The notes under the pieces are model-generated. The model had not been told where the DNA came from and did not search any database. It was given only the letters and a program-made list of their open reading frames with translations. DNA of 29,264 nt from a virus (Duplodnaviria; Caudoviricetes): IMG/VR virus record IMGVR_UViG_3300049261_000008, positions 1 through 29,264 of that record; one strand, given 5' to 3'. The number at the start of each line of letters is the position of its first letter. Position 1 is the first letter of the stretch. Below are positions 2,558-26,145 of this stretch, piece by piece. The translations under genes were made by a program, and so were the position numbers.

Positions 2558-3424
2558 TTAGATATTGGCATATTGTGAGAGAAGCGCTTGCACTTCTTGC
2601 AGCATGTCCTGCGGGAATTGCACGGCTTGCCCCATATCCGTGATCGTAATCGTGTTATACGCGCCCTGTCTTGCGTACAAGAACGCCGATTGACGGGCGG
2701 TCACGCGCCGAATGCCCTCCTCCACAAGGAACACGCTCACAGGGCTATCGATGAGATGTGCGGCTGCCGTTGATCCATTCACCCCGCGCACGACCGTGAC
2801 CGTGTTGGTGATGGGATCGGTCTTTACGACGTCCATCCACTCCTCATCGATTTGCACGACATGCCCCGCGCTGATTCGTGGCGTCTCTGCATAGGGATTC
2901 TCTCCATCCACATTGCCCACTTTAAACGTCGTGGCCGTCGTGGTTGTCATCGCCACCGCCAAGGCATCGACCTCCAACCATGCATTCGCGTAATCGCTGT
3001 TGTAGCCCCATATCCCCGTGAGCGTGGCATTCTGCGGTCCCCAGGCATCGGTACAGGCGGCATAGGTATACCATGAACTATACGCGCTGCCCAACAATTG
3101 TAACTCCTGAAAGGGCGACGCGCCGACCGGGAAACTCTGAACGCCCGTGCCCACGGTGAGCGCCTGACTGTTGACCGTGATCCCTGTCAGGTCCATCATC
3201 GGCATACCGAGATCGAAGGTTCGAAGAACGCTGTTGACCCGGTAAGCGTCAATCGGCACATAACGCACGCCGCGCCAGGGTGTAAACAGGGACACGCGAG
3301 AGCGGAACGCCTGATCAATGCGCCGCGAAATCTGCCGCAGAAAACGCATCACTTTGGCGTCATCGGCGGCGCTTTCTGCATTCAATTCACTGCGCACATC
3401 GGCTAACGTGGCATACAAGCTCAT
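2558..3424 (-). CDS. Head-tail adaptor/connector with inserted beta-rich domain
   Basis: Start MSLYATLADVRSEL (YAT..D/E motif typical of gp6/gp15-like adaptors), SRRID, LTGIWGY; ATG at 3424 overlaps upstream stop (ATGA). Confidence 0.7.
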   Translation of the reverse strand: MSLYATLADVRSELNAESAADDAKVMRFLRQISRRIDQAFRSRVSLFTPWRGVRYVPIDAYRVNSVLRTFDLGMPMMDLTGITVNSQALTVGTGVQSFPVGASPFQELQLLGSAYSSWYTYAACTDAWGPQNATLTGIWGYNSDYANAWLEVDALAVAMTTTTATTFKVGNVDGENPYAETPRISAGHVVQIDEEWMDVVKTDPITNTVTVVRGVNGSTAAAHLIDSPVSVFLVEEGIRRVTARQSAFLYARQGAYNTITITDMGQAVQFPQDMLQEVQALLSQYANI

Positions 3425-3642
3425 ATGTCCACCCATTGTTTAGTTTTACTATCGTAATTGGAAACTATAGTGTCTGTCTCAAGATCCACAATTTCACCGC
3501 CATCAGGGGGCGTTTCGTCCCACGCGCCTGTTAGGATGTTTGTAGCTTTTGCTTCCTCGATGGTTGCAAATATCCCTTTGTTATCCCCCCAACCCCCTTG
3601 GGGATAGTAACGAGGGTATGAAAACACAGCAAATCGTTTCAT
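3421..3642 (-). CDS. Small phage hypothetical protein (YYPxGGxxD motif)
   Basis: 73 aa; ATGA overlaps at both ends; AT-richer than flanks (21/60 G+C in 3421-3480 vs 34/60 in 3301-3360). Confidence 0.6.
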   Translation of the reverse strand: MKRFAVFSYPRYYPQGGWGDNKGIFATIEEAKATNILTGAWDETPPDGGEIVDLETDTIVSNYDSKTKQWVDI

Positions 3643-4163
3643 CGAAACCCCTTCCCTGAGCGTGTGGAACCCGTCTGCACGCTGCCAAATGACAGAATGT
3701 CATACCATGCGTTCGTCGCGAGATCGGTCGCGAGATCTTCAGCTTTCAACAGGGTATCCTCGTAATGATACCACTGGGGGAACATCGGCTGGCGATCTGG
3801 CCCGCTGCCCGCCACATACTCGGTAATCCCTGAGTCGTTTGAGACGGTCAATGTGGAACCAGCCCCATCTTTCACCGCCGCTGTCTTCCATGCTTTCTGG
3901 AACGCCCCCGTGCGTCGATAGGGCAAATTACCCTCCTTGCGCAATTTCGCCATCACATAGCGGCGCTGCTTCTGACTTTTCCAGACGAGAGGATAAGATG
4001 GCTTGGGGATACTCACATTCACCAGATTGCGCACGACGTAGTTCTCGACTTCCTTCTGAATTGTGCGCGTGACATAGATGTTCATCGTGGTCGGCGCGGC
4101 GGCAATCTCACGGGCCAGTTCGCTGAACACCTCTTTGTCATAGCTGAGCGTGTAGCTAACCAT
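3639..4163 (-). CDS. Neck protein, HK97 gp10-like (putative)
   Basis: 174 aa; WKSQKQRRYV and PYRRTGAFQKAW resemble the RTGxLxxS motif of gp10-like neck proteins; neck-region position. Confidence 0.55.
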   Translation of the reverse strand: MVSYTLSYDKEVFSELAREIAAAPTTMNIYVTRTIQKEVENYVVRNLVNVSIPKPSYPLVWKSQKQRRYVMAKLRKEGNLPYRRTGAFQKAWKTAAVKDGAGSTLTVSNDSGITEYVAGSGPDRQPMFPQWYHYEDTLLKAEDLATDLATNAWYDILSFGSVQTGSTRSGKGFR

Positions 4164-4416
4164 TCATAACCTCATCAAATATCCGCGACAGTGTTACTCT
4201 GTCATCTCCTACGCTTACGCCTGCGACTAGGAAGACAAATTCCGTTTGCGAGAGGCGGTGCAAACTAATCTGATACCCCCATGATGCGCCCACACTACGA
4301 TGATCGCCAATGTCCACGATATCAAAACGCGTCTTCCAAAGAATTGTAACAGTCTTGCGAAGCTCACTCTCAGGCGTATCAGCAAGAGACTCCCCAAAAA
4401 AGATAAAAGTACTCAT
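4156..4416 (-). CDS. Hypothetical protein
   Basis: Likely start MSTFIFF at 4416 (ATGA overlap with upstream stop); the longer track ORF overlaps the 4413..4688 gene. Confidence 0.5.
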   Translation of the reverse strand: MSTFIFFGESLADTPESELRKTVTILWKTRFDIVDIGDHRSVGASWGYQISLHRLSQTEFVFLVAGVSVGDDRVTLSRIFDEVMNG

Positions 4417-4688
4417 CCGTGATCCCCCCCAGTCCAACGATGTCCCATCATCCCCGCGCCCGCAATCGCCCCCACATACACAACCTCTCTGAGGGGCGTG
4501 TAGACGTACAACAGATACGCCGCAAGTCCTACCCACAGGATCAAGCACCACTGGCAAGTCAGTAGCCCGCCCATTGTCGTCACGGCCCGCAAGCGCGCAA
4601 AGAGATTGAACGGGCCCGCTGTCTTGATGAGGACATACGACACATACCACGCAAAGAGGGCGAGAATAAGCAGGTCAAGGATTGTCAT
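4413..4688 (-). CDS. Membrane protein, DUF1360-like
   Basis: Start MTILDLLI; several hydrophobic helices; GPFxxFxxLR and LLTCQWCLILW (CxWC) motifs characteristic of DUF1360. Confidence 0.65.
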   Translation of the reverse strand: MTILDLLILALFAWYVSYVLIKTAGPFNLFARLRAVTTMGGLLTCQWCLILWVGLAAYLLYVYTPLREVVYVGAIAGAGMMGHRWTGGDHG

Positions 4689-4863
4689 TGGTTTCCCGTG
4701 CAAACATAACAAAGCGCTGTCTTTCGCTTAAGTGACTGACGCTCACAACGCGCCATCCCTCTCGATTAGCAATAACGTTAAGCTCTTTGTCCTTATCATC
4801 CCACAGCAACGGATAAGGAACGCTATCTTTAAGGTATTGCATCAATGTTCTATATTCGGTCAT
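4675..4863 (-). CDS. Hypothetical protein
   Basis: 62 aa, coupled to the upstream glycosyltransferase by ATGA; EGWRVVSV motif seen in small DUF4177-like proteins. Confidence 0.5.
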   Translation of the reverse strand: MTEYRTLMQYLKDSVPYPLLWDDKDKELNVIANREGWRVVSVSHLSERQRFVMFARETNDNP

Positions 4864-6575
4864 ATCAACACCCTCGGCAGTATCTCGGTGAACAACTCTT
4901 TCAATCGCGCCGCAAACGAATGGTGCGCTCTGACGTAATCATACGCGCATTTCACGATTTTGGCGCGTTTGGCTTCATGTTTGGGATTCATGTAGTAATC
5001 GATCAGCTTTTTGAGGTCGGTATAATCGTCCCACGCGACATAATGTTGACCCGCAATGAGCCCGGTGTAGTCTTCCAGGCGGTCAACTTTTTGATGCAGT
5101 AGCAGTGCCCCGCCCGCGTAAAGACTATCAAATACACGATTGGAAATGAACCCGGTATCCCGTGCATACTGATTGTCTCCCACTTCGATCTTTGCCGAGC
5201 GGCGTATCGCGTTCGACAATTCAAACTCATACGTTGAATTGCCCGCATTGTACTCCTCAAACTCTCCGACCCAACCCGATCCGACCAGTCCGACATGATA
5301 CGGGCTTGCCGTGAGCACGCGGGCCAGTTCGCGGCGCTTGTCGCTGTAGGCGCTGCCCATGAGGACAATCTCATAGGCGTTTTCAGGCGCGATGAAGAGG
5401 CGTTCGTCAACAGGCTCATAAGCACACTGCCAGTACGCCGCCGCGACGCCTTCACGCGCGTACACAGGCAGGGCCGCGCCATTGACGACCAACTGCACAT
5501 CGACATTGGCCTTCAACCACTCTATCGTTTCCGAGGTAATCAGGGCGTCTAAGTAAACGTCCCCATTCCAGTTCAGACACAGCATTTCAGGCTGATTGTC
5601 CCGCGCCGCTGCCAGGTCGATCAAATCGCGCTGGCATTGGGTGAAGAGAATATCCGGTTGCCACGCCTTCACGAGGGCGGGCAGGTCATAGGGCTCATTG
5701 ATGTAATCGACTTCCACCACCGCCCCGTAAGACGCCAGTCCCTCGCGCAAGCCGCGCTTCAATAGGGGATGATGCGGATACACCTTGCTTTCAAAGATAG
5801 GCAAATACAGCGTGCGCAGTCCCACGGGTTTAAGTGGATTGTCCACGCAGCAGTGATCTTTCATCTGAGGCGGGGACGTGAAGCGCTGATAATAGCCGCC
5901 GCCCTGCTGCAAAGTGCGCTTTTCATGCTCAATATTCTGCACGCGTAGAGAATCGTTTGCGACAATATCTTTCACGCGCACGCCTTCCACTGCATCGACA
6001 GAATAGCCGTATTCGAGGATACGCGCTGTGAGATAGTTATCGCCGCCGTAGGTATGCGATTTAAACAAGGGATCATACGCGCCCCACCAGCCGCACAAAT
6101 CGCCCAACCAGCGCCGATACAAGCCAACTTGCGCGTAAGGCACGCTGATCGTCTTGCCGTCGGGAGACAGCACGGTCATCGTCTGGACATGATAGCCCGC
6201 GTGCTTGCCAATCGCCCCGCGATCATCGGCAAAGGCCACTGCACCGCACGCGGGATGATCTTCCAGATAGGCGAGGGCCGCGAGAATTGAGTAGTCGACT
6301 ATTTGAATATCATCATTTGCAAGCAAACAATACGTGCCGCGTGCCGCATACGCCCCGTCCGAGAACGCCTTAATTGCGCCTAGCAATGATCCATGTTCAA
6401 TCAGTCTTACGTCGGGCTGAGACTTACACCATTCAATTGTTCCGTCTGTGCTACCCCCGTCTACAATGACAATCTCATAAGCGATGCCATGATGCAAATA
6501 GCGCCGCGCCGATTCGATCATCTGTTGCAACAGGGAGAGGCGGTTGTACGTGCCGCTAATGAGGCTAAGAAGCAT
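4860..6575 (-). CDS. Two-domain glycosyltransferase: N-terminal GT2 (GT-A) plus C-terminal CgeB/Glyco_trans_1_2-like (GT-B) domain
   Basis: Likely start MLLSLISGTYNR (6575); EIVIVDGGSTDGT, LLANDD (DxD-like), YGGD; C-terminal WNGD, SNRVFDSLYAGGALLL and HSFAARLKE typical of CgeB-family domains. Confidence 0.85.
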   Translation of the reverse strand: MLLSLISGTYNRLSLLQQMIESARRYLHHGIAYEIVIVDGGSTDGTIEWCKSQPDVRLIEHGSLLGAIKAFSDGAYAARGTYCLLANDDIQIVDYSILAALAYLEDHPACGAVAFADDRGAIGKHAGYHVQTMTVLSPDGKTISVPYAQVGLYRRWLGDLCGWWGAYDPLFKSHTYGGDNYLTARILEYGYSVDAVEGVRVKDIVANDSLRVQNIEHEKRTLQQGGGYYQRFTSPPQMKDHCCVDNPLKPVGLRTLYLPIFESKVYPHHPLLKRGLREGLASYGAVVEVDYINEPYDLPALVKAWQPDILFTQCQRDLIDLAAARDNQPEMLCLNWNGDVYLDALITSETIEWLKANVDVQLVVNGAALPVYAREGVAAAYWQCAYEPVDERLFIAPENAYEIVLMGSAYSDKRRELARVLTASPYHVGLVGSGWVGEFEEYNAGNSTYEFELSNAIRRSAKIEVGDNQYARDTGFISNRVFDSLYAGGALLLHQKVDRLEDYTGLIAGQHYVAWDDYTDLKKLIDYYMNPKHEAKRAKIVKCAYDYVRAHHSFAARLKELFTEILPRVLI

Positions 6576-6930
6576 TTTGTTTGCATTCTTTGATAAGCGC
6601 GTCATAATTGCGCCACTTTCCCTTGATAAAGTATTGCAATTCATCGGGTGCAACGCGGCGTTTGAAATGTTCGTCTTCTTCGAAGAATTGGACCGTGAGA
6701 ATATCCCGTATCTCAATTGGAATATCGCGCGTGCTAAATGAATCAAATCCTTCAAACCCGTATCGCATGATAACCCCTTCGTGTCTGTAATGCAGCACGA
6801 AGCGAAAATCGGAGTCGGGTTTGTAGCGTATGCGTGTTTTCAATGGAATCTTCTCAGAGAATTTATCCCAATTAAAATAGCCTCCGTAAACCTTTGTTTG
6901 GACGCATTCACCTCTGTTGTCAATCGCCAT
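6565..6930 (-). CDS. Hypothetical protein
   Basis: 121 aa, AT-richer, coupled (TAATG) to the upstream small ORF. Confidence 0.55.
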   Translation of the reverse strand: MAIDNRGECVQTKVYGGYFNWDKFSEKIPLKTRIRYKPDSDFRFVLHYRHEGVIMRYGFEGFDSFSTRDIPIEIRDILTVQFFEEDEHFKRRVAPDELQYFIKGKWRNYDALIKECKQNAS

Positions 6931-7142
6931 TATTCTTGTTCTCCCCTGATTTCGACAAGTCGCAACACAATCGCCCCTTCCTCAGCCGCCACCACCGCCC
7001 GCCATGTGCCATCGTCAGACAGCCTGAACTTTATTCCGCGTGTTTTGTAGCGCGCTTCGCAGTCCCGTTCACAGTCCTCTATCGATGGATAGTCATCGAC
7101 TTTGTAGATGGTATAGGGCGAGATGAATGTGAGGGCGTACAT
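6930..7142 (-). CDS. Hypothetical protein
   Basis: 70 aa, packed between neighbours, GAGGA upstream. Confidence 0.5.
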   Translation of the reverse strand: MYALTFISPYTIYKVDDYPSIEDCERDCEARYKTRGIKFRLSDDGTWRAVVAAEEGAIVLRLVEIRGEQE

Positions 7143-7144
7143 GG

Positions 7145-7432
7145 CTATTCTTCCTCAGAGCCTACCTCTTCCTCGTCCGATTTCTCATAGAACGAGAGGC
7201 TAAAGCTCTCTTTTTCGGAATGCGTGCTGAGAACAAGATTGTTCTCAATAGCGATTTCACGCGCCAACGTATTCAGACGGTTGATCTGATCGTCCGTCAT
7301 GATCCATTTGGATGTTGCAATGGGGGCAATGTTGAACACTGTGTATCCGTTGGTTGCGCCAGTATAGAACAACCCTTCATTAGAGCGAGGGCGATTAACG
7401 TCGAGAGGGGGCACGGTCATGATATACTCCAT
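7145..7432 (-). CDS. Hypothetical protein with acidic tail
   Basis: 95 aa, TAATG overlap with the upstream glycosyltransferase-like gene. Confidence 0.55.
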   Translation of the reverse strand: MEYIMTVPPLDVNRPRSNEGLFYTGATNGYTVFNIAPIATSKWIMTDDQINRLNTLAREIAIENNLVLSTHSEKESFSLSFYEKSDEEEVGSEEE

Positions 7433-8181
7433 TATTCGATTAAATCGAGCGATGCAAACGGATGATCTTTCAGGAACTCAGGCACGTCAACGCTCTCCCA
7501 ATTCCAGGCTGTCGAACCTACGGGATGCAAGTCCGTTGTGCGCAAGGGATTCATGAAGATATCATGGAACCAATCGCAGTCCTTACGCCATTCGTTTTTA
7601 TGGCCGTGCGTCTCCTGTTTGTACTTCACAATCTCAGATCTTTGGGCATAACCGAAATGATTGATTGTTCGATACTGTACGCAAGGGCCTTGATGGGGCG
7701 TGAATGTTTCCGCGCCACTCTTTGTATTAGGGTAAATCAAACGTACAGGGAACGCGGGATCATGCAAGATGACCTGCTTAAGACTCCTCCAGTAATGAAT
7801 CATCGGCATTCTGATATCGCGCCGATGCCACGTGCTTGTTTCCTCAATCGCCTCTCTCAGCAGTCCGGGCGGCCAAATTTCATCACTGTCTAACACAACA
7901 ATGACATCGGCGTCTGGCGCAAGCGCGAAGATGCTGTCGCGCTGCTGCCCTTCGTGCGTCCATGTGCTCTCAAACCAACGCAGTTTCTCCCCCGCCGCTT
8001 GATAGGCAATGTCATAGAGTTCATCGCGTGTGTCCGGGCAGGGCGTCGATGTGCGATGACCGTGTGAGCCGATAGGGGTGTATAACACGAAATATTCATC
8101 CACCTCATCAATGATGGAACGAATGGCGTGGCCCAAGTAATCTTTCCCGTACAGCAGAGCACTATATCCGATGATGTTCAT
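7432..8181 (-). CDS. GT2-like (GT-A fold) glycosyltransferase
   Basis: Start MNIIGY (ATGA overlap); AIRSIIDEVDE, EGQQRD, IVVLDSDEIW (DxD) and INHFGY motifs. Confidence 0.75.
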   Translation of the reverse strand: MNIIGYSALLYGKDYLGHAIRSIIDEVDEYFVLYTPIGSHGHRTSTPCPDTRDELYDIAYQAAGEKLRWFESTWTHEGQQRDSIFALAPDADVIVVLDSDEIWPPGLLREAIEETSTWHRRDIRMPMIHYWRSLKQVILHDPAFPVRLIYPNTKSGAETFTPHQGPCVQYRTINHFGYAQRSEIVKYKQETHGHKNEWRKDCDWFHDIFMNPLRTTDLHPVGSTAWNWESVDVPEFLKDHPFASLDLIE

Positions 8182-8633
8182 AGGCCTATTTGCGCCTCTA
8201 TCCATGATTGTGTTTCAGGGTGCAGTTTGCGCGCATGTGCTGTTTTTTCGTACCAGCCTTTTGTATCTGCGTTGCCGTATGCTAGTCCTGCGCCGCGCCA
8301 ATCAGCAAGCATTTCTCTCATATCGGCGTCAGGCATCTTGAGAATCTTTACCGCGCCACTGTCTTCCATCAAGACCCATGCTTGCCAATGATGCTTGCTA
8401 ACTTTCTGATGGCGATTCCATGTTGCATCGAACGCCTCAGTCTCGACATACTGCTTTGATCCATCAGCGGCATAAAACGCATGAGCATACGCACGGAACA
8501 TCTGAGGGCCAAACTTATCCCAATCGTGAATGATCAGACGCAGCATTGAGAGACCTAACTTGCGCCCCTCCTGATAGACAAACCGCTTGTGCCTGAGTAG
8601 AGCTTTTAAATAGGCTAGGTAACGTTTCATCAT
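8178..8633 (-). CDS. DUF5662-like HD-domain protein
   Basis: LRHKRFV, IIHDWDKF, HQKVSKHHWQ, EMLADWRGAG pattern. Confidence 0.7.
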   Translation of the reverse strand: MMKRYLAYLKALLRHKRFVYQEGRKLGLSMLRLIIHDWDKFGPQMFRAYAHAFYAADGSKQYVETEAFDATWNRHQKVSKHHWQAWVLMEDSGAVKILKMPDADMREMLADWRGAGLAYGNADTKGWYEKTAHARKLHPETQSWIEAQIGL

Positions 8634-9280
8634 GCCCCCTTACGCCAGATAGCAAACCCGCAGTCGGCAGGCTCGATCAACACATTCGTGGTCTTGTAGC
8701 CCGCCCGCGCGATGCCCTCTCTCACAGCAAATCCTGCCACCGCGTGCATGGCGTCATGCGAGATGATCACGCCCCCAGGATTGAGAAGTTTATCGGCGTG
8801 CGACCACACGAACGCGACTTGTTCAGCGTCGTGCATGGCGTCCTCGAAGATGAAATCATAGGTGTATTCGCGTTCAACGGCCATCGGAAGACACTCTTCA
8901 ATCGACACGGCGTGCATAGTCGCAAAGGGTTTGAGTTCTTTGGGGATCATGTCTCCAATGACAACATCCCCATAGGCGCGGTTATCGATGCATTCTATAA
9001 CGCCGCCGTCGTTATCCCTCAACGCCTGTAAGATATGCGTCGCGCTGGCCCCGTGCCATGTGCCGAGTTCCAGCACATTCGCGGGCTTCAACGCACGGAT
9101 GAAGGCGTACAGGAACTGCCCTTCCACGCGCCACAGTGAGCCTGTCGGGAATCCATCGTCATAGAGGGCATGATAGCCCCCATGCGGGTCTTGAAGCATA
9201 GCATCATACATCGTCTTAGCGTCTAAGTGGAACGTTTCTGCGATTTGCTTGAGTGCGACGGGGAGAGGGGTGGCGGTCAT
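8630..9280 (-). CDS. Class I SAM-dependent methyltransferase (Methyltransf_24-like)
   Basis: VLELGTWHGAS (motif I), FIFEDAMHD, LLNPGGVIISHD; start MTATP at 9280 overlaps upstream stop. Confidence 0.85.
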   Translation of the reverse strand: MTATPLPVALKQIAETFHLDAKTMYDAMLQDPHGGYHALYDDGFPTGSLWRVEGQFLYAFIRALKPANVLELGTWHGASATHILQALRDNDGGVIECIDNRAYGDVVIGDMIPKELKPFATMHAVSIEECLPMAVEREYTYDFIFEDAMHDAEQVAFVWSHADKLLNPGGVIISHDAMHAVAGFAVREGIARAGYKTTNVLIEPADCGFAIWRKGA

Positions 9281-9492
9281 GACCAACCATCCTTTTTACT
9301 GTTCTTGCCCATGATCAGATTTAGGGCGTGCCCATCAACTGAAGTCCAGCGCTCGACAATGACCCATCCATCGTCTAGCAGTTCATTGAGCAGCGTTTCG
9401 CACTTAACGGCATCGGCGTGCCAATCTTCAATTTGTCTGGCTGTCAACGGGAGAGGGCAATATCGCGCCCTCACACTAATAACCTTGATCAT
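9277..9492 (-). CDS. Hypothetical protein
   Basis: Likely start MIKVISV at 9492 with AGGGAGG RBS; LNELLDDGWVI motif. Confidence 0.55.
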   Translation of the reverse strand: MIKVISVRARYCPLPLTARQIEDWHADAVKCETLLNELLDDGWVIVERWTSVDGHALNLIMGKNSKKDGWS

Positions 9493-9502
9493 AATGCCCT
9501 CC

Positions 9503-10297
9503 CTATAGAGCACTTTCAATGTAAGACTTGAAAGAATTTGATACGCACAGTGTATCGTGCAATTCATCCGCTTTGTCCCTCAATATCTGGGGGTAGCGCT
9601 GTGTCATCAACGCCGTGTAATCCGCGATGACGCTAAAATCCGCATACAGCACGCACGTGTCAAAGATGCCCCTGTCGATGACTTGCTCACTGATGAGGGG
9701 CTTATGCCAGGCCGCCGCAATCGCAAAGCGCAGGGGGGCGACGGTTGCGACCCGTTCATGCTGATGGACATGCACGACGCTCTTACACGATTTGAGAACC
9801 GCATCGCGTTCCGGGTCCCACGCATTGGGCGCAATCGTCAGCCCGCGTTCGATCATCTTGCCAAAGGCCTCATTGCGGCGTCCCGTGCGATACGCGAGGG
9901 GCGCGACGTCATAGATTGTTGGGTCAGGTGCGGCGTCTCCCACAAGGCCGGGATGAGAACCGAGCGGGACATACTGCGCATGGATACGTTCGGCATACCA
10001 TTTGTCAGACGCCCACACACGCGAGACGCCGGGAGGAATTGTCAGGTCAGACTCGGACCATGCGTAATCGCTTTCTTTCAACCTCCATTCATAGTCAGCC
10101 AGGATGATTGTCGCCCTGCCTTGCCGCCAACCGTGATTGTTCTCCCCATTGAGAGGGGTGAAGATGTAGACGTTATCACTGTCTACATCGATCTCATCGC
10201 AGTAAATGACAGGATAGCCCGACAACCGCGCCAGATTAAAATAGTCGGTATACGAGTCATAGACTGTACGCGTCTGGACAAAATAGACATCACTCAT
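9503..10297 (-). CDS. Glycosyltransferase-like protein (GT-B type, divergent)
   Basis: 264 aa; RDAVLKSCKSVVHVH and PLRFAIAAAWHKPLISE resemble the C-terminal donor-binding half of GT-B enzymes; sits within the GT cluster. Confidence 0.55.
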   Translation of the reverse strand: MSDVYFVQTRTVYDSYTDYFNLARLSGYPVIYCDEIDVDSDNVYIFTPLNGENNHGWRQGRATIILADYEWRLKESDYAWSESDLTIPPGVSRVWASDKWYAERIHAQYVPLGSHPGLVGDAAPDPTIYDVAPLAYRTGRRNEAFGKMIERGLTIAPNAWDPERDAVLKSCKSVVHVHQHERVATVAPLRFAIAAAWHKPLISEQVIDRGIFDTCVLYADFSVIADYTALMTQRYPQILRDKADELHDTLCVSNSFKSYIESAL

Positions 10298-10530
10298 TCG
10301 AGGGCCCTCTGTATCGGCTCTTCATTGAGCTTTCGCATGAGACTGACTGCGCGGCGTTCGTTGTCTTTGCTATCAGAGCTATCAAATGCTTCAACAAACT
10401 CTCGTTTGATGTACTCTGGCTCGCCTTTAAGGATATCCCCATGCAGGCAAATATAAACGCTCCATGCCCCTACGTGGGGGCGATTGGCAATAGCGTGATG
10501 CTGCCATGCGCGAAGGCTTATCTCACTCAT
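10294..10530 (-). CDS. Hypothetical protein
   Basis: 78 aa, ATGA overlaps at both ends. Confidence 0.55.
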   Translation of the reverse strand: MSEISLRAWQHHAIANRPHVGAWSVYICLHGDILKGEPEYIKREFVEAFDSSDSKDNERRAVSLMRKLNEEPIQRALE

Positions 10531-11576
10531 GGCAGATCGTCCCCCTCAACCTTGGTCCATCCTTGCGCCTTTGCAATCGTCTCGCCCTTTTTGCGCGTGT
10601 TCGCGTGTGGTTTGTATTCGATGGGCGATTGTGGTTGTGGCGCGGGCATTCCCCCGCCAAAGATGGCGGCGGCGGCTAATTCCCAAGGCACGTCGGGGTT
10701 AGACTTGTACTCAGGCATCAGAACGACGCCGTTTGCGGCCTGCAAGGGGGCGTCGATGCGCTTCCACTGATGGGGCGCGGCGGCAATGTCCAGCGGCGAG
10801 ACGTACAGGAGCTTCGGATAGGATGTGCGCGGATAGAGGCGGCCCGTCGAGAGTCCCATCTTGCGCGCGTTGCCGTTCCAGAGGGCCTGGGCCAGCACGT
10901 CGCCGTCACTCGGCTCATTCTCAGGTGTCAAAGGGTGTTGTGTGGTATCGCCGCAGCAGCCCATCAGATTGTATCCTCCATAGCGATTGGTCATATACTG
11001 CAATGCTTTCAATTCGTCCCCGCTTTGACGGGCCGCGATCGACCGCTGCCCGCCCTCCCGATAATGCACAAGGGGGGCCACGATGTGCAGCCCACAGAGA
11101 CCGGACAGACGCAAGCGGACATAGAAATCAGCGTCTTCAGCCCCTTGCAAGACCTCATCAAACCCGCCAATTGCACGCACGGCATGTGTCGGAATAACAG
11201 CGGTCACCAGATGGAATGTCTTGTTGGTCCATGCGTCGCACGGTTCGGGGGCGGTATGAACCACGTTGTTGATGCCGAGCCAATCCGTATAGACATAACG
11301 CTGGTCGGTCTTTTGCGCGGCATACTGAGCCAGCACGCCCAATGTGACTTCGGCAAAGTGAGGGTCTAAGGTGTCGTCGGCGTCGAGGAACGTGCAGTAC
11401 TCCCCTGTTGCCTGTTCAAGGCCGCGATTCCGAGCCCAACCGCTTCCATTGCCCTCCATATCGTCAATCACGATGACTTCGCAATCGACTGTCTGGGCAT
11501 TCACACTGGCAACGGCTTGCGTGACAATCTGCGAATGATACGGACCGCATGGGATGATGATCGAGAGATGTGTCAT
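10527..11576 (-). CDS. GT2 glycosyltransferase with C-terminal extension
   Basis: Likely start MTHLSIIIP (11576); EVIVIDD, GWARNRGL, FLDADD, GGFDE, AEDADF are canonical GT2 motifs; about 145 extra residues from MGCCG onward. Confidence 0.9.
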   Translation of the reverse strand: MTHLSIIIPCGPYHSQIVTQAVASVNAQTVDCEVIVIDDMEGNGSGWARNRGLEQATGEYCTFLDADDTLDPHFAEVTLGVLAQYAAQKTDQRYVYTDWLGINNVVHTAPEPCDAWTNKTFHLVTAVIPTHAVRAIGGFDEVLQGAEDADFYVRLRLSGLCGLHIVAPLVHYREGGQRSIAARQSGDELKALQYMTNRYGGYNLMGCCGDTTQHPLTPENEPSDGDVLAQALWNGNARKMGLSTGRLYPRTSYPKLLYVSPLDIAAAPHQWKRIDAPLQAANGVVLMPEYKSNPDVPWELAAAAIFGGGMPAPQPQSPIEYKPHANTRKKGETIAKAQGWTKVEGDDLP

Positions 11577-11635
11577 GTTGTGCCTATCGAGGATAGACCG
11601 CCTGATTACGATCTGTGCTAAGGATAGCATGAAGT

Positions 11636-11658
11636 GGCGCTGCGATGCAAGCAGCGCC
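11636..11658. repeat. Intergenic hairpin GGCGCTGC-gatgcaa-GCAGCGCC containing a 14-mer shared with 20528-20541
   Basis: 8-bp perfect inverted repeat; CTGCGATGCAAGCA at 11640-11653. Confidence 0.6.
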
Positions 11659-11667
11659 CAGAAGGGG

Positions 11668-12408
11668 TTAGAAGAGACGACCTGCCCAATCTTGAGGCAG
11701 TTTATCGCTCTTGCTGGAATTGCATGATTTGTGGGCTAACACGATATTGCGAGGATCATGTCTACCGCCGATATTGATGGCTACGATGTGATCGATTGTC
11801 ACATCGTCCCCCATCGGCTTGGAGCACCACCAACACAAGCCCTTCTGAGAGCGTAATTGCAAATCCTTGTCAGCCTTAAAGAAGCCATCACCCCCATTGC
11901 CTTTGATTTGAGCGCGGCGCATATGCTTATGATTCGCCATTTTCTCAGGATTGGCTTTAGCCCACAAGCAAGCACGACGTCTGATTTTAGGGGCGTTGAT
12001 TTCATAGTACGCTATGGCGTAATCATGGCGACGCTTGACATTCTTTTCACGCCAGCGCTTTTGATAGGCTTGAATATGCTCTTTACATCTCTCGTAACTG
12101 CGTTTCTTTTGGGCGGCGACTTTCTCAGGATTGTTCTGTCGCCATTCACGTTTTTGTTGCGCGATCTTTTCAGCGTTTTCAGCGCGATAGGCCTTGACTT
12201 CATCGAGTCGCCCCGCGTGATATTCACGATGCCATTCTTTTGTGCGCTCTGTGTTGGCGTAGTGCCATGCAAGGGCTTTAGCCTTAGCGCACTCTTTGCA
12301 AGAGTAGCTTAAGCCTTCTTTGGCTTTCTTGTCTTTGTACCAGAACTCAGGGGTGAGGGGGTATGAAACGGAGCACTTTTTGCAAGTGCGTTGTGGTATA
12401 CTATCCAT
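11668..12408 (-). CDS. HNH endonuclease
   Basis: N-terminal CKKC...CKEC, basic helical repeats, C-terminal CWWC...TIDHIV...GGRHDPRNIVLAHKSCNSSK. Confidence 0.9.
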   Translation of the reverse strand: MDSIPQRTCKKCSVSYPLTPEFWYKDKKAKEGLSYSCKECAKAKALAWHYANTERTKEWHREYHAGRLDEVKAYRAENAEKIAQQKREWRQNNPEKVAAQKKRSYERCKEHIQAYQKRWREKNVKRRHDYAIAYYEINAPKIRRRACLWAKANPEKMANHKHMRRAQIKGNGGDGFFKADKDLQLRSQKGLCWWCSKPMGDDVTIDHIVAINIGGRHDPRNIVLAHKSCNSSKSDKLPQDWAGRLF

Positions 12409-12467
12409 GTCGACTTACTCCAATCCAGTAATCGATAGATCAGCCGCGCCCTGATAGCGTGTTGATC

Positions 12468-12502
12468 AAAAAGCAGGGATGACACATTGTCATCCCTGCT
12501 TT
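12468..12502 (-). terminator. Intrinsic terminator-like hairpin after the major capsid gene
   Basis: 15-bp perfect inverted repeat AAAGCAGGGATGACA-cat-TGTCATCCCTGCTTT (12470-12502) ending in T5 on the minus strand. Confidence 0.6.
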
Positions 12503-12504
12503 GT

Positions 12505-12513
12505 ATTATAGCA
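12505..12513 (-). promoter_or_regulatory. Extended -10 promoter candidate (TGCTATAAT) upstream of the HNH gene
   Basis: Perfect TGnTATAAT on the minus strand in an intergenic region. Confidence 0.5.
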
Positions 12514-12545
12514 CAGATTGGGCGGTTTAGGCTATTTCTAGCCTA

Positions 12546-13985
12546 TTAAGACCGATATGTAACTCCCCCATTGCGGTGAAGGTAGGTAACCGCAGGGTCT
12601 GCGACTCTGGTCTGCGCGCCGTAGCTGAATGAAATATCATCCCAACGAACGGCCAGGAATGGCGTTTCGATAAAGGCGCGTAATTTCATGCTGAATTCGA
12701 GTTCGATACACCCGCCCGCCTCACGCTTGTTCATCATGTACATGCCGTTGTTCATGAATTCGGCGCTTGGATACACGATGCCAGCGAACTCGCGGGCGTA
12801 CGTGTTCCCCATGTCATGGTATTCGACATTGATCAGAGGGCGTCCGTTCCATGAAATCGGCAGCAGATAGGCATCAGCCCGCAGCACGTTCGGCGCGGCT
12901 GATCCGAGGCGCGGCATAGAAATGCCGTCCGAGAAGATGACGGGCACGGGCACACCGTCAATCAAGAGATACTGCCCGTTCTGCATTTCAAGGCGCAGGC
13001 GATTGGTTTCATCCCCTGTGATCTGAATCGGCTGGCCCGCATTGCTTGACTGGCAGCGATACGTCAGATATTGGCAGGACCACACTTCTGTGAGCGCGCG
13101 GAAGAACTCAGCACGCAGGACAAACGCGAACTGCACCCCGTCCAGGCCCACCTGTCGCGCGGTGTCATTCACGGCGTAGTACTGATCCGCAAACGATTGC
13201 ACGATATTCGACCCGCTGACCGTGGCCCCCACATCGGCGTTCCAGGTGATGACAATCGAGTCGGCAGCAGGGCACGCGACGCCTGTAATGCTGTCGGTGT
13301 ATCCGGTCTTGACGAGGGTATCAAGGCCCGCAAAGTCTTTCCACCAACCCGTAATGGATGTGTTTGTCCCGGCCACCCCGTTCCACAGTTCTGTTTCAAA
13401 CGACCGGGCGATCTGATTGCCCAGGGTGTAGAGTTCGTATTGAAGCTGTGAGCGCGTGTCGGTCAATTGCCACATGCGGTCTGGGATGAAAGGGTTATCA
13501 CGCGGCGGGCTGTTGAGAATTTCGCCAGGAATATCGGCGCGATTGCGGAGTTGGCCGACTTCCTGCAAGGGCACGATACGCGTGTTCATCTTGAAATTGC
13601 CAAAGGCGTACACCTGTTGGCACGATTTCAGCACGCCTGGCAGCGCACCGGGGGCGCACCAATCGGTTTGCGCATTCGCAACCCCCGCTGTTTGCCCGGT
13701 CATGATCGAGACGATTTCATTGCCAAATTCGGACTTACGCGGGCGCAGGATAGACGACATCGAACGCGGGCGCATGAGAGCGCTGAAACGATCAGGCCGC
13801 ACGCCGGGGCTGCTGAAAATGCCGTACTGATTGGCATTCGTGAACGACTGGCCCTGAAAGGTGCCGCTTGCGGTCGGCGTGCTGCTGGACGGGTCATTCT
13901 TCTGCCCGATATTCAGAAGGCCCGATTTACTCATCTCACTGATTTGTTTCTCAGTGAACTCAATGCCATTGACCAGAATGCCCAT
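12546..13985 (-). CDS. Major capsid protein
   Basis: 479 aa following protease/scaffold; ELWNG...FAGLDTLV pattern of HK97-fold capsids; strong RBS (AGGGAG); followed by a terminator-like hairpin. Confidence 0.75.
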   Translation of the reverse strand: MGILVNGIEFTEKQISEMSKSGLLNIGQKNDPSSSTPTASGTFQGQSFTNANQYGIFSSPGVRPDRFSALMRPRSMSSILRPRKSEFGNEIVSIMTGQTAGVANAQTDWCAPGALPGVLKSCQQVYAFGNFKMNTRIVPLQEVGQLRNRADIPGEILNSPPRDNPFIPDRMWQLTDTRSQLQYELYTLGNQIARSFETELWNGVAGTNTSITGWWKDFAGLDTLVKTGYTDSITGVACPAADSIVITWNADVGATVSGSNIVQSFADQYYAVNDTARQVGLDGVQFAFVLRAEFFRALTEVWSCQYLTYRCQSSNAGQPIQITGDETNRLRLEMQNGQYLLIDGVPVPVIFSDGISMPRLGSAAPNVLRADAYLLPISWNGRPLINVEYHDMGNTYAREFAGIVYPSAEFMNNGMYMMNKREAGGCIELEFSMKLRAFIETPFLAVRWDDISFSYGAQTRVADPAVTYLHRNGGVTYRS

Positions 13986-15202
13986 TAGCGGTTTTCTCCC
14001 TGTGTCGGCAATTTCTTCATTTTGCCCCAGAACGGATCGATGGTGGTTTCGCCCTCTTCTTTGGCGATCTCAGCGGCCTTGACGACCTCCGCAATCGCCT
14101 CGTAATTCGTGCCCTTTTGCTGCTGGGCGCTGCGGGGGGTCAGCTTCTCCCGCGCCTCCAGCATGGCAACACGCTGTTCAAGTGTCTGCTCATACGCCTT
14201 TGCCTTCGTGCGTTCGTCTTCCAGCGCCTTGACGGACTTCACAAGTGCCATTTCAGCCTCCATCGACCCCTGTTGAGAACCCACGAGTTCCATCACAAGG
14301 CTGTAGATGGAATTGAGCGTGCTCACCCACTTGCCCATATCGGCGGGGGCCTCTTTCTTCTCCCCGTCCATCTCATCCACAGCGTCCGCTTCCAGCCCTT
14401 CGGCCTCATCCATCAGGGCGGCGGGCTTGGCTTTATAAACCAGCCCATTCAATTCACTTAATAGCTTGGCGCGTTCTGCGGCTGTGCCGTGAAGTTTCGC
14501 GGCCACCTCAGTTGCCGCGCCGGACGTGATCTTTGCAAACACTTGATCCAAGTGTTTATCGCTTTGTGCTGACATCGATGTAATTACTCCTGCATACGTC
14601 ATGGCGTTAGCGGCTAAAGCGCGGTCAGGAAGATAGGTGCTCTCCTGCTTAAAAATGTGCAGATAATCCCCGTCTGCGGTGCGGTCTTCCTCGCGATAGC
14701 CGAATCGATGAGAGGCCCCGGCGTTATCCCCGTTTTCTTCGGCAAAGTCAAACAGCACTTTGGAAATAGGGTCATTGGGGATTTCTTCAATGATTTCGAT
14801 GAGAAACGGCTTGATGTAGCTGGTGGATATAATCTTCCCCATGACGACATCATCATCATGCCACCACAAATAAGGATTGTCGTTGTGGTACACATCTTCG
14901 GCGGGAAAACAGGACGCCACATATTCTTCCAGCGCCTTTGATGTGATGGTTTCGTTCTCACGGTCCATGTAGGCGTTTGATGTGATGGAAAAGATATGCC
15001 GCAATCCCGTGTTATCGGCGGGAAACGTCTTCACCCCCAGAACATGATCATCCCTGAACATCCCCTTGAACTTCTGTATCAAGGTCTTATCCATGCGCGG
15101 CGTTGCGATGAACGATTTGACCGCATGGGGATGATCGCGTATCGGCGGCGTCTCATTCTCAGGCGTGTTGGCGATGGCGTCTACTTCGATGAAATCAGTC
15201 AT
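13985..15202 (-). CDS. Prohead protease / scaffold protein, putative
   Basis: Likely start MTDF (15202); SNAYMDRENETIT, LWWH, GASHRF resemble HK97-type protease motifs (DRxxE, H, GxS); coiled-coil C-terminal half; between portal and capsid. Confidence 0.65.
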   Translation of the reverse strand: MTDFIEVDAIANTPENETPPIRDHPHAVKSFIATPRMDKTLIQKFKGMFRDDHVLGVKTFPADNTGLRHIFSITSNAYMDRENETITSKALEEYVASCFPAEDVYHNDNPYLWWHDDDVVMGKIISTSYIKPFLIEIIEEIPNDPISKVLFDFAEENGDNAGASHRFGYREEDRTADGDYLHIFKQESTYLPDRALAANAMTYAGVITSMSAQSDKHLDQVFAKITSGAATEVAAKLHGTAAERAKLLSELNGLVYKAKPAALMDEAEGLEADAVDEMDGEKKEAPADMGKWVSTLNSIYSLVMELVGSQQGSMEAEMALVKSVKALEDERTKAKAYEQTLEQRVAMLEAREKLTPRSAQQQKGTNYEAIAEVVKAAEIAKEEGETTIDPFWGKMKKLPTQGENR

Positions 15203-15437
15203 GTGAATCCTCCGCAAGAATGACATCGATATAGTATTCTTGCCCCTCTTTGAAGTCTGCCACGACGTGAGACAAAACCGTCATCATGAGGTTGCCAGAC
15301 GGGGTGTATTTCCAATATTTCGCATTCTCGTGATTCGGATCGTCCGAATACACGGCCATGAGGTTAATTGACGTGTGCTCAGGATCACCACCTTGCGGAG
15401 TGACACTGTTCACTTTGAATTTAGCGCGAATGTTCAT
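15195..15437 (-). CDS. Conserved small phage hypothetical protein
   Basis: RAKFxV...ENxxYWKYTPSG...GQEYYID pattern recurrent in phage genomes; AAGGA RBS. Confidence 0.65.
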   Translation of the reverse strand: MNIRAKFKVNSVTPQGGDPEHTSINLMAVYSDDPNHENAKYWKYTPSGNLMMTVLSHVVADFKEGQEYYIDVILAEDSHD

Positions 15438-15473
15438 AAGAATCCTTTAGATCATGATCCAATATATCACAGG

Positions 15474-17519
15474 TTAGAAAGTGCCGCGTGCCGTTTCAGT
15501 CGTGCGAACAAGCTGGCACTTACAGTTAAACCCTTTGCATTTCAATTTACTCGCCCGTGGCAAGAGCCCGCGCGCCTTCCAATTGCGAATGCGATGTACC
15601 TGCCCATTGAGGCGCAAGCAATCGTCACAATGTTCCGTCAGCCCGTAGCGCCATTCATACATCGCGTTCTTGTTTGCGTTCGTCATGCCGCCATCGAGGA
15701 ACGCCTGCAAGCTCTTGCCCCACATGTTCGCCCGACTATACAGATTGCTCTGTGTGATCGTCTTCTTCACAAGCGCGTCCTGCCCCAGATTGGGCACATA
15801 CTGACTTTGATCGACAAAGATACGCATGTAATCGGCGTTGTCTTCGGGGTCTAATGTCTCGACGTACACCCCGCCCTGCGCCAGTCCATCGCGATAGGCC
15901 TGATAGCCGTAATTCTTGAGGAAGCTGCGCATGGTGATGTTAAAGGCGCGCGTGTCGAGATACGGGTTCGGCGTGATGGCAGACTTGAGAAGATCGGTCA
16001 CGTCCTGAATAAAGCCGCTTTCCGTCACGTCATAGGACTTCTTGACGCTCTTGACCTCCTCATCCACATTCAGGCGCACATCAGGGCCCTGGGGCGTGAC
16101 AGGGGGCGTGACAGGGGCCGCGCCCGCCGTATTGTCCTGAGCAATCACGGGCTGATCGATCACGTCGCCACCGCGCACGGAGTCTTGCAGGGCATCGCTC
16201 ACGGCTTCAATTTCGTTGGACATCATGGTCCGCGCTTCCTGCCCACTGATTGCCCCCGCCCCCACAAGGGCCACCGCCACGGCGGACCACGCCTGGGCTT
16301 TTTGCGCGTCCTCTAAACTCTCCTGACTATCGCGCGTCTTAAACTCAAACGTGTATTCATCCGGGAGGCAGTCGTTCAACTTGCGTTCCAACTGTTGAAG
16401 CAGATAGCCGAGCGTCTTGCCGCGTGACTTCTGCGACAGAACTGCCGATTGTCCTTGCGATCCAATATTGCCGCTGCCTGACAATTGCATGAGTTCCATG
16501 CGATCGATGCCCATCGCGAGGGCCAGCGCGTCAACATCAATATCCGTGTAGACGCGAAAATCAAACTTCTCAGGCGCGCTGGAGAAGTCATAGCTTTCAA
16601 TCTTAGGCATGTGGCTTACGTCGGCGGCGAAATAGAACTGGCGCTGTCCATACGTGGCCCGTCCATCCATCGCTTGCTGATTGCGATACTTCGCTTGCTC
16701 CTTTTCCCAGTCGGCCTTCATGATCCCGCCCACCGCCGTAAAGCCTGGGGGCGGCACATCATCGAGGCGCGTGTTGATATAGCGCGTCTCCCACACCTGC
16801 CGCATCGCAATCGACACGGCCCGACTGAGGGCGCTGTCGCCATACCCTGGGCGGCGCTGATCCCCATCGTCCATATCCAATAGACGGATCACGCGGGCAT
16901 GGTTCAGCACGTGCAAGCCGCCCCAACGGTCATAATAGACCGCCGGATAACGCGGATCGCCCGTGGGGTAGGTGTACAGGGGGTCGATATGCGCCAAGCC
17001 CGTCATCGGGCCGTTGGGCGCATCAAACGCCTCCCCCGCCGCGATCACTTCGATATAGCCGCCCGCGTCATAGCGCAGGAAATCAACCACGGTCTGCGCA
17101 ATGAATGTGCCCCAGCCCTGCCCAAAATTGGCTTGACGCAGAACCTCCTGATAATAGTTCACCCCGTCATCGCGCTTCAAACGCCAGCCCTGCTGAGACG
17201 CCATCCGCCCAAACACGGGATTGGGACGCGTCTCGTTCTCAAGCGCTTTGATCTCCCAAGGAAGGGAGGCGATATTCTTGGCGAGTCCCGTCATCGCGCC
17301 GCGAACCATCCACATTTCATCCATGAAATACAACTCTTTGAGCGCCAGTTCACGTGAGCGTGTGCCACGGGGCGGCAGAAACGAGGTACGCAGGGCGGGC
17401 TCACTGAATCCCGATTGGATACCATCGCGCGTCACGGAGGGCGGGATCTGAATCGATTCGCGAATGGCCCGTGAGATTTGATCGTCGGGCGATGGGGCAA
17501 CAGGGATCATATTAGTCAT
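15474..17519 (-). CDS. Portal protein fused to a MuF-like head morphogenesis domain
   Basis: Follows large terminase; IASLPWEI portal-like N-terminus; Pro/Thr linker; C-terminal YEWRYG.TEHCDDCLRLNG...CKGFNCKC typical of MuF/SPP1 gp7 family. Confidence 0.75.
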   Translation of the reverse strand: MTNMIPVAPSPDDQISRAIRESIQIPPSVTRDGIQSGFSEPALRTSFLPPRGTRSRELALKELYFMDEMWMVRGAMTGLAKNIASLPWEIKALENETRPNPVFGRMASQQGWRLKRDDGVNYYQEVLRQANFGQGWGTFIAQTVVDFLRYDAGGYIEVIAAGEAFDAPNGPMTGLAHIDPLYTYPTGDPRYPAVYYDRWGGLHVLNHARVIRLLDMDDGDQRRPGYGDSALSRAVSIAMRQVWETRYINTRLDDVPPPGFTAVGGIMKADWEKEQAKYRNQQAMDGRATYGQRQFYFAADVSHMPKIESYDFSSAPEKFDFRVYTDIDVDALALAMGIDRMELMQLSGSGNIGSQGQSAVLSQKSRGKTLGYLLQQLERKLNDCLPDEYTFEFKTRDSQESLEDAQKAQAWSAVAVALVGAGAISGQEARTMMSNEIEAVSDALQDSVRGGDVIDQPVIAQDNTAGAAPVTPPVTPQGPDVRLNVDEEVKSVKKSYDVTESGFIQDVTDLLKSAITPNPYLDTRAFNITMRSFLKNYGYQAYRDGLAQGGVYVETLDPEDNADYMRIFVDQSQYVPNLGQDALVKKTITQSNLYSRANMWGKSLQAFLDGGMTNANKNAMYEWRYGLTEHCDDCLRLNGQVHRIRNWKARGLLPRASKLKCKGFNCKCQLVRTTETARGTF
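16091..16116. repeat. 12-bp tandem duplication GGGGCGTGACAG in the portal-MuF linker
   Basis: Two adjacent copies encoding PVTP-PVTP. Confidence 0.6.
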
Positions 17520-18765
17520 AGCGTAATTTCCATGCCATATACCTCAGAGAATCCGCATGATGGTCATTGAGCTTCGCGGGGCGGCGTTCTCCGTTGATCC
17601 CCGTGGCACTCTCGGCATACTCATAACTCTGAAAATCATTGATCAATTCCGTACAGCGCGGGTGAACCTTCAACAGACGCACGCCGTTGCCATCGCAGAT
17701 GAGACGCCGAACGTTTTTGATGCCCTCTGTCACCACATGCGTCGCCCCCATCGTCTGAATGCCCTGGGCCCAGATACGCCCTTTCAATTGGGCGGCGCTG
17801 CTGTCCACATACGCAATGTCAGGCAGTGGATAGCCTAACTCTATCACATGTTTAATCGAGATCTCTTCAACTTCAAGTGTGGCGCTGTATTCGGCAAAGA
17901 TATTCAATCCCCCTTGGGGGGTGAATTGGCCCAACAGGAACACGCGGGGATGATACGAATCCGTCCCGCGCCCCTTCCCCAGGGCGTAGCCATCGTCAAC
18001 GCCCCAGGCAATCGGCCACGCAGGGTTATAGTCGGCCTCTTCAGATACATTGCCATCAGGCTCCAGACTAAAGTTATCGTAGATCGCCCCTTCTGACTGC
18101 ACCCATCGATTCAAGACGAGACGTTGATACTGTGTCCCTGTGAGCGTTGCAAGCGTCTGAAAATAACTCTCTGGTAAATACGGGTTGTCTTTGGCGACGG
18201 AGTAATACACGTGCGCTTCCCCACCAATGATCAACCGTTGGTTGATCCAGTGGCCGGGGGCGTCGGGATTGGTCGTCAGAATGATTTGCCGCCATGACGC
18301 CGCTGTGTGCCGCAAACGCGCTGCGAGTTCATTGAAATCTTCCTCATCAAGCGCGGTCGCCTCCTCAATCCAGATGACATCAACGCCGCCTTCCCCGCCA
18401 ATCGAGCGCACACTCTCGCGCTGATCATCGTCCTGCATCCCGCCTGTATACAGCACCGAACCATTGGGATAGGTGAAGGTATTGTCGCTCTTGTTCCATG
18501 TAATGCCGCTGCGCATACCCCCCATAACCTTCCACATGGTCGGCACACACGAACGATTTGCGCTCTTGAGCGTCTTACGCACCATGAGACCGACCGCGCC
18601 GGGATACTTGAGCAAATAGGCGTGCAGCTTTTCAGCCGCCAATCGTGATTTGCCGCCGCCGCTCCCGCCTGAGAGAAGGATCACAAGCGACTTATCATGC
18701 CAGGGGGCGATGTGCCATGTGAGAGGGGCAAAGGGGGCGAGTCTATTCGGCGGCGTCCCAATCAT
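17512..18765 (-). CDS. terL: Terminase large subunit (PBSX-like)
   Basis: Walker A GGSGGGKS, Walker B IWIEEA, TTNP coupling motif, nuclease GVDDG and DHHADSLRY. Confidence 0.93.
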   Translation of the reverse strand: MIGTPPNRLAPFAPLTWHIAPWHDKSLVILLSGGSGGGKSRLAAEKLHAYLLKYPGAVGLMVRKTLKSANRSCVPTMWKVMGGMRSGITWNKSDNTFTYPNGSVLYTGGMQDDDQRESVRSIGGEGGVDVIWIEEATALDEEDFNELAARLRHTAASWRQIILTTNPDAPGHWINQRLIIGGEAHVYYSVAKDNPYLPESYFQTLATLTGTQYQRLVLNRWVQSEGAIYDNFSLEPDGNVSEEADYNPAWPIAWGVDDGYALGKGRGTDSYHPRVFLLGQFTPQGGLNIFAEYSATLEVEEISIKHVIELGYPLPDIAYVDSSAAQLKGRIWAQGIQTMGATHVVTEGIKNVRRLICDGNGVRLLKVHPRCTELINDFQSYEYAESATGINGERRPAKLNDHHADSLRYMAWKLRYD

Positions 18766-19168: not shown

Positions 19169-19179
19169 TGTTCAAGTCT

Positions 19180-22828: not shown

Positions 22829-22848
22829 TCTCAACTCCTTGATAAGTC

Positions 22849-25960: not shown

Positions 25961-26145
25961 TGGCGCCCCTTGTATGGCTTGCGCCAATTCTGAAATGTGC
26001 TTCGCCATACGACGTAATCGACATGCGCAATCTGCCATCCACTTTTACGCGTCGTGCGTGTGGCCTTTAAGTGTCCCTGCGCGCATTCATATTGGATCAT
26101 ACGCACGGTGTATCCGGTCATGTGAGCGATCTCTTGCGCGGTCAT
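25957..26145 (-). CDS. Small HTH (excisionase/MerR-like) DNA-binding protein
   Basis: MTAQEIAHMTGYTVRMIQYECAQGHLKA...WQI pattern. Confidence 0.7.
   Translation of the reverse strand: MTAQEIAHMTGYTVRMIQYECAQGHLKATRTTRKSGWQIAHVDYVVWRSTFQNWRKPYKGRQ

Follow-up and report, generated by a model that had tools for sequence, protein, structure and literature searches.

Nested start codon in the first glycosyltransferase gene

The analysed DNA (the window) is the entire virus record IMGVR_UViG_3300049261_000008 (29,264 nt, completeness ~55%). On its minus strand, a cassette of glycosyltransferase (GT) and accessory genes follows a gene for a predicted HK97-fold capsid protein. The first GT gene, of family GT2, contains a second, in-frame start codon preceded by a Shine-Dalgarno (SD) motif. 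An earlier examination of the letters alone (the sequence-only reading) had overlooked both this internal start and the Cys-rich domain behind it, and the nested product is also overlooked by gene callers. The features of this gene are as follows:

10975..10979, minus strand: internal SD motif GGAGG, assigned from sequence context (-9.3 kcal/mol)
10527..10964, minus strand: predicted nested in-frame product of 145 amino acids (AA), starting at ATG 10964
10527..11576, minus strand: full-length fusion gene of GT2 and Cys domain, 349 AA; core gene with Pfam GT2 match and conserved DADD
10965..11576, minus strand: GT-A (GT2) catalytic domain, assigned by Pfam match and conserved DADD
10749..10910, minus strand: L9-N/GINS-B-like beta domain, candidate capsid-binding module; residues 19-72 of the nested product, model pLDDT 85

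The open reading frame (ORF) 10527-11630 matches Pfam GT2 above the cut-off (E 2.5e-12). Beyond its catalytic part, the GT2 protein has a further domain, which starts with M-G/A-C-C-G and is termed the Cys domain in the following. The nested product comprises M-G-C-C-G, a small beta domain, a Pro/Gln-rich linker and a basic tail.

The start codon and the SD motif inside the GT2 gene are conserved at the nucleotide level. Internal starts were compared in 48 loci, which were retained from 54 aligned loci after removal of five near-duplicates and one cut gene. The first codon of the Cys domain is a start codon in 48/48 loci (ATG in 36, GTG in 10, TTG in 2). Where Val or Leu occupies this column, GTG or TTG is used in 12/12 cases, compared to at most 22/38 at 20 other aliphatic columns. 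Identity among the 12 genes concerned is 35-73%. The SD energy had a median of -9.3 kcal/mol at the internal start versus -2.9 kcal/mol at 1,139 other in-frame start-like codons, whereby energies refer to pairing with the standard anti-SD motif, which may not be the host's own, and the start of one locus (L016) was mis-picked in this set. A second set consisted of 24 genes from the loci found by GT-side searches; 11 belong to a distant clade that differs in gene order, and some are close to the first set. The start was picked in 23 of these 24 genes (median SD energy -10.0 versus -3.0 kcal/mol), and the remaining gene shows ATG at this place. The SD motif is not a by-product of an encoded Gly-Gly, since it persists under different encoded residues.

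SD energies in the window are -9.3 kcal/mol for ATG 10964, -8.2 for the capsid gene, -8.6 for the tail tube gene and -2.4 for the full-length GT2 start. We infer an abundant 145-AA product next to a scarce full-length fusion, and the internal start is, judged from these sequence data, very probably used. A stop codon between GT2 and the Cys domain was found in 0/48 loci and is absent in the distant clades with other gene order, too.

Gene content of the cassette

The remaining cassette genes and their flanking genes are:

12546..13985, minus strand: major capsid protein of predicted HK97 fold, 479 AA; AlphaFold2 (AF2) model with pLDDT 83 and VIA-align match
11668..12408, minus strand: HNH endonuclease between capsid and GT2 genes (Pfam HNH, E 1e-9)
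9503..10297, minus strand: likely GT-B-type, CgeB-related glycosyltransferase, accessory (family profile)
8630..9286, minus strand: Methyltransf_24 / O-methyltransferase-like S-adenosylmethionine (SAM) enzyme, accessory (Pfam, E 2.5e-16)
7432..8181, minus strand: likely GT2-like enzyme with DxDE and HxGY, weakly GmaR-like, accessory (family profile, motifs)
4860..6575, minus strand: two-domain GT2 + Glyco_trans_1_2 (CgeB-like) enzyme, core (Pfam)
4413..4712, minus strand: small membrane protein DUF1360 (Pfam, E 2.2e-6; hydrophobic stretch; synteny)
2558..4163, minus strand: putative neck and head-tail adaptor genes at the cassette boundary, named by position and synteny

All ORFs named in the sequence-only reading, including the SAM enzyme, were found at these places on the minus strand. 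Its estimate of about five GT domains was borne out for three domains above Pfam cut-offs; the other two (7432-8181 and 9503-10297) depend on weaker family evidence. ORF 4860-6755 matches GT2 (6.8e-18) and Glyco_trans_1_2/CgeB-like (7.6e-11), and its start was set to 6575 because homologs align from residue 61 of this ORF. For the protein 9503-10297 itself no Pfam or PHROG match was obtained, nor a PDB sequence match for its family; 4/24 family members match Glyco_trans_1_2 (best 8.5e-4) and the family profile matches that of the CgeB-like domain (62%, E 7.6e-5), which points to a likely CgeB-related GT-B. The protein 7432-8181 alone matches Pfam GT2 with E 0.04, 4/14 members of its family do so with a best value of 1.4e-5, and DxDE is invariant; hence, it is likely a GT2. 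GmaR is an enzyme glycosylating flagellin. Among PDB entries it matches the 7432-8181 family best (PDB 22ao, E 0.011) and shares DxDE and HxGY with it; the match is weak, covers ~110 residues and includes no other common domains. PDB relatives of the methyltransferase are O-methyltransferases, and its true start is likely ATG 9280.

From GT2 to DUF1360, 11/12 junctions overlap and the remaining one is a gap of 2 nt, in agreement with the overlapping stops and starts described before. Cassette enzymes were scanned for hydrophobic or transmembrane stretches and none was found, whereas DUF1360 has one. Eight further short or unrelated ORFs are interleaved; among the capsid-side loci seven have no homolog and one has three. 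The small ORFs between the enzymes, with almost no homologs in related loci, look like later insertions. A DUF5662 gene (8178-8633, minus strand, E 1.4e-32), which has no homolog in related loci, sits inside the cassette.

Pfam, PHROG and PDB sequence searches gave no match for the capsid gene. Its model aligns to the capsid of cyanophage A-1(L) with Z 20.2, a root-mean-square deviation (rmsd) of 3.4 and 306 aligned residues (VIA-align), by which the modelled 479-AA protein is assigned the HK97 capsid fold. The placement of the cluster between capsid and neck genes, as previously described, stands on the capsid side; the HNH gene and the eight ORFs interrupt it, and the neck genes are defined by position and synteny. 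In the closest relative (L001), the HNH gene is absent from this place and GT2 begins 58 nt past the capsid gene.

Conservation across related loci

The capsid alignment was prepared from 46 of 461 homologs and led to 85 loci. Downstream genes were counted in the 44 loci that extend 2 kb or more beyond the capsid gene. The position of the cluster after the capsid gene, which the sequence-only reading had put forward as a check, is conserved in relatives: a GT gene is present within 5 kb in 42/44 loci at capsid identities of 27-84%, with four near-duplicate pairs among the 42. L025 and L029 deviate from this, L029 having just 2.1 kb downstream. Both the GT2 with Cys domain and the GT2+CgeB enzyme are present in 15/15 loci spanning capsid to adaptor. 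Accessory genes in these loci are Methyltransf_24 (10), GT-B-like (8) and GT2-like (6, one of which, in L045, is likely its GT17 gene). The same slot in relatives holds GT17, FkbM methyltransferases, sulfotransferases, nucleotidyltransferases, epimerases/dehydratases, PIG-L deacetylase and LpxD-like acyltransferase. DUF1360 is kept at the cassette end or beside the Cys-domain gene, even in distant clades (L172, L175, L182, L213).

These data modify two former proposals. An O-methylated glycan is compatible with the methyltransferase in the window, but this enzyme is accessory and was not matched in the closest relative (84% capsid identity; complete). The use of host sugar donors may hold for this phage, and no sugar-donor enzyme was found in a Pfam scan of 60/82 ORFs of the closest complete relative; other relatives carry epimerases and nucleotidyltransferases, and the record itself is incomplete.

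Searches from the GT side found the capsid family in 28/36 GT2+CgeB loci; of the other eight, five are on contigs showing the capsid family in another locus and three are undecided. For the GT2-like family the value is just 24/39, so this family also occurs elsewhere. GT2-like homologs in L140, L142, L145, L146, L169 and L170 lie on viral contigs of 100-395 kb, surrounded by further GT and methyltransferase genes; the capsid family is not represented in their vicinity. A different post-capsid glycan cassette was seen in L023 (29% capsid identity; 12802-20092), comprising epimerases, GT2s, GT4+GT2 and an unannotated 367-AA protein.

Over 35 loci, pairwise capsid identities correlate with those of the GT proteins (Spearman 0.45 and 0.33), and the value of 0.45 for capsid and GT2 was reached in 1/999 permutations. 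This fits a long co-inheritance and is not proof of contact. The capsid family had zero matches in 50,697 GenBank phage records, and the first GT2 had 20 weak matches (best ~30% identical), none of them in a mycobacteriophage.

Fold, stand-alone form and fusions of the Cys domain

The Cys domain is present in 390 protein clusters at 50% identity. Pfam, PHROG and PDB sequence searches returned no meaningful match and the Atlas no usable one; a locus search with a short protein (P0215) found nothing. Structure comparison of the beta domain gave weak matches throughout (38 listed), among them a GINS-type chain (Z 4.7), YqbF (Z 3.0) and the gpFI C-domain (Z 2.9). Matches in a viral structure library are small tailed-phage proteins (best E 0.045). 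According to its model, the domain appears to have an L9-N/GINS-B-like fold. In distant clades a linker and then an HhH- or HeH-like tail come after it, whereby some tails were named by eye.

A stand-alone gene of 177 AA with the layout of the distant clades lies 2 nt past the capsid gene in L025, a record without GT2; its alignment group matches the main domain profile with 96.6% (E 5.5e-10). Of the best 150 domain matches, 36 start at the domain N-terminus. They may be either stand-alone genes or calls on cut contigs and were not counted as unfused. As a rule, the fusion gene follows the capsid gene directly; in one distant clade it occurs later in the cassette. Other in-frame partners of the Cys domain, in different phages, are GT-B-like, GT2-like, GT2+CgeB, FkbM and Methyltransf_24 domains. 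One locus (L095 in G014, 11432-15178) has two copies, of which the first closes GT2 and the second opens an FkbM-GT2-CgeB gene.

A scan for GGAGG followed by ATG-G/A-C-C-G was evaluated for the first 80 of 120 loci. Besides 11 GT2 fusions, these held many genes that are unrelated or small and stand-alone. In phages without relationship to the family, such small genes lie downstream of portal/protease-like genes in L196, L212, L238 and L242 and downstream of tail genes in L198, L240 and L241. They were rejected as homologs, having the N-terminal motif alone in common.

Mainly because of the repeated fusion to glycan enzymes, the beta domain is read as a tether holding enzymes to capsids, a role that is quite possible and proposed tentatively.

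Proposed function and known systems

The explanation preferred as a whole, and on balance probable, is a virion glycan cassette whose first gene would make two proteins. The ancestor would have been a stand-alone post-capsid gene encoding M-x-C-C-G, a beta domain, a linker and often an HhH/HeH-like tail, similar to lambda gpFI or YqbF. This gene would have gained a GT2 domain at its N-terminus without losing the start it already had. Head assembly would still be served by the small product, and the fusion would carry GT2 to proheads, where it would likely prime or extend a glycan. Extension and capping would fall to the core GT2+CgeB enzyme together with the variable GTs and the methyl-, sulfo- and acyltransferases, with phage-specific glycans as the outcome. 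Virion proteins are quite probably the target of glycosylation. The sequence-only reading had arrived at a virion glycan as well; this remains the best reading, with amendments on O-methylation, sugar donors and, as described below, the argument concerning DNA.

A more far-reaching proposal, which we consider rather doubtful, is a capsid-tethered glycan assembly line across a widespread uncultured family. The gpFI-like domain would have been fused repeatedly, the two ribosome-binding sites would determine the ratio in which enzymes attach to proheads, and the product would be a phage-specific methylated, sulfated or acylated glycan, the counterpart of a serotype locus.

By gene content and place, the cassette would work like known virion glycosylation systems. 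In the cluster O mycobacteriophage Corndog, an O-methyltransferase and three GTs (gp35-38) are located between portal and protease (PMC4351075). Virion glycosylation is described for Corndog and Che8, and the Corndog enzymes are reported to act on capsid and tail tube (PMC11600133, PMC12363180, PMC12619734). As in such a long-tailed phage, several GTs and an O-methyltransferase-like gene reside in the head operon. In contrast to Corndog, the slot follows the capsid gene, the core GT is joined to a small post-capsid protein whose internal start has been kept, and a broad range of accessory genes occurs (GT17, sulfo-, acyl- and nucleotidyltransferases, epimerases). The nested, fused head-module domain is what sets the cassette apart from known virion glycosylation systems.

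The lambda gene FI follows the capsid gene, and the C-domain of gpFI binds the capsid. The place after the capsid gene is shared with lambda gpFI and YqbF of B. subtilis, and a small L9-N-like beta domain may be, as far as weak structural matches go; a linker and a tail of nucleic-acid-binding type are shared by distant members of the Cys-domain family. In contrast, no sequence similarity was found to gpFI or YqbF, and the N-terminal Cys motif as well as the nesting in and fusion to glycosyltransferases are particular to the present family.

Demonstrated virion glycosylation of tailed phages is, in the literature examined (partly as excerpts), carried by a few mycobacteriophages. Titles and abstract openings contained no report of a fusion between a GT and a post-capsid protein that has an internal start, with subscription papers and supplements outside the scope. 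For the question of how soluble GTs pick capsid proteins, a 54-residue domain and one start codon offer a direct handle. In a lineage without cultured member, the cassette belongs to the core of the head module and appears to have been inherited along with it for long. If the tether is true, it would provide a portable capsid-addressing tag for glyco-enzymes, useful in particle engineering.

Weighing of alternative explanations

A number of observations weigh against virion glycosylation by tethered enzymes. Inspection of the C-termini of capsid and tail tube by eye revealed no obvious dedicated Ser/Thr tag. Searches of GenBank phages with the capsid and the first GT2 found no cultured relative, and 15/39 GT2-like loci lack the capsid family nearby. 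The matches of the beta domain to gpFI (rmsd 3.2, 47 aligned residues, Foldseek E 1.1) and to YqbF fall below the meaningful level of the tool, and GINS/L9 chains score equally high or higher. L025 alone matches the domain profile with 10.7% only, and its homolog search returned just one shorter, 100% identical copy; thus, the unfused form amounts to one locus. The CgeB-like domain weakly matches the T4 DNA beta-glucosyltransferase (E 0.013). According to PMC4351075, the Corndog GTs were not detected in its virions, and no report of a tether was found there.

Alternatively, the virion may be glycosylated and the fusion target nothing, GT2 having come to lie in frame before the small gene, or the small protein may itself be the glycan acceptor. 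A need for the small protein alone explains the conservation of the internal start, the linkers are rich in Pro, Ser and Thr, and in L095 the first copy stops soon past the domain, the second copy heading the next gene. Yet, a stop codon never separates GT2 from the domain, neither in the 48 loci nor in the distant clades, and the recurrent fusion to five further types of enzyme suggests that their physical linkage is selected for. We regard this possibility as unlikely, if by no means far-fetched. The enzymes could instead hypermodify phage DNA during packaging, recruited by a gpFI-like domain bridging DNA and prohead. The T4 match, the HhH/HeH-like tails that the fusion carries in distant clades and a QueF-like gene beside a TGT/DpdA-like ORF in the window agree with this, as do the bridging of capsid and terminase-DNA by gpFI (PMC13595911) and the DNA-hypermodifying GT clusters near structural genes reported by Pyle et al. 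(bioRxiv 2023.12.21.572611). Given the latter, late-region position, which had been used as the argument against DNA, is insufficient alone. A better argument is the absence of acceptor-making enzymes. The multi-GT clusters for sugar hypermodification of 5-hydroxymethylcytosine (5hmC) resemble the cassette and are at times near structural genes, but they need a C5 methylase and 5mYOX/TET (same source). A C5 methylase was found in 0/7 records and a ThyA-family hydroxymethylase in 0/10, positive controls being detected in both cases (five of the records are at least 90% complete); the search for TET/5mYOX dioxygenases gave 0/10 with an equally silent control. DpdA was found in 1/11 records, in contrast to the near-universal cassette. 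The partner enzymes GT17, sulfotransferase, FkbM, PIG-L and LpxD-like, which are typical of surface glycans, point in the same direction. DNA as the target is therefore disfavoured and appears improbable.

Very improbable is an alteration of the host envelope for receptor masking or lysogenic conversion. It would fit the conserved membrane protein DUF1360, the match of the GT2+CgeB N-domain to a GtrB-like PHROG (E 4.4e-5) and the ParM-like gene, which suggests a plasmid-prophage state. Opposed to it are the co-oriented, overlapping genes inside the late operon, the lack of membrane anchors in the enzymes, an integrase in just 1/6 terminal-repeat genomes, and the fusion of the core GT to a post-capsid protein. 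The virion glycan cassette with a predicted two-product first gene is retained as the best explanation.

Further genes and observations

Up to the capsid gene, the minus-strand gene run comprises DnaB, primase, ParM-like, DNA N6/N4 methylase, terminase, portal and protease/scaffold. Capsid, HNH, cassette, neck, tail tube, chaperones and the start of the tape measure follow, whereby neck and tail genes were named by gene order and synteny. Scans for promoters (14 versus 10.5) and terminators (10 versus 11.8) were at chance level. With regard to the host, of three genome-collection contigs two are in Chloroflexota bins and one in a Bathyarchaeia bin; they are short, phage-like and possibly mis-binned.

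The ParM-like actin gene (21252-22834, minus strand) is accompanied by a small gene downstream, which suggests a plasmid-prophage partition system. A QueF-like T-fold gene (24702-25118, minus strand; Pfam E 4.9e-5, PHROG GTP cyclohydrolase) adjoins an ORF of 331 AA (25043-26038, minus strand). The latter had no Pfam or PHROG match, including none to PF23859, and carries motifs seen by eye which we take to be TGT/DpdA-like. The two genes possibly form a pair for 7-deazaguanine DNA modification, apart from the GT cassette.

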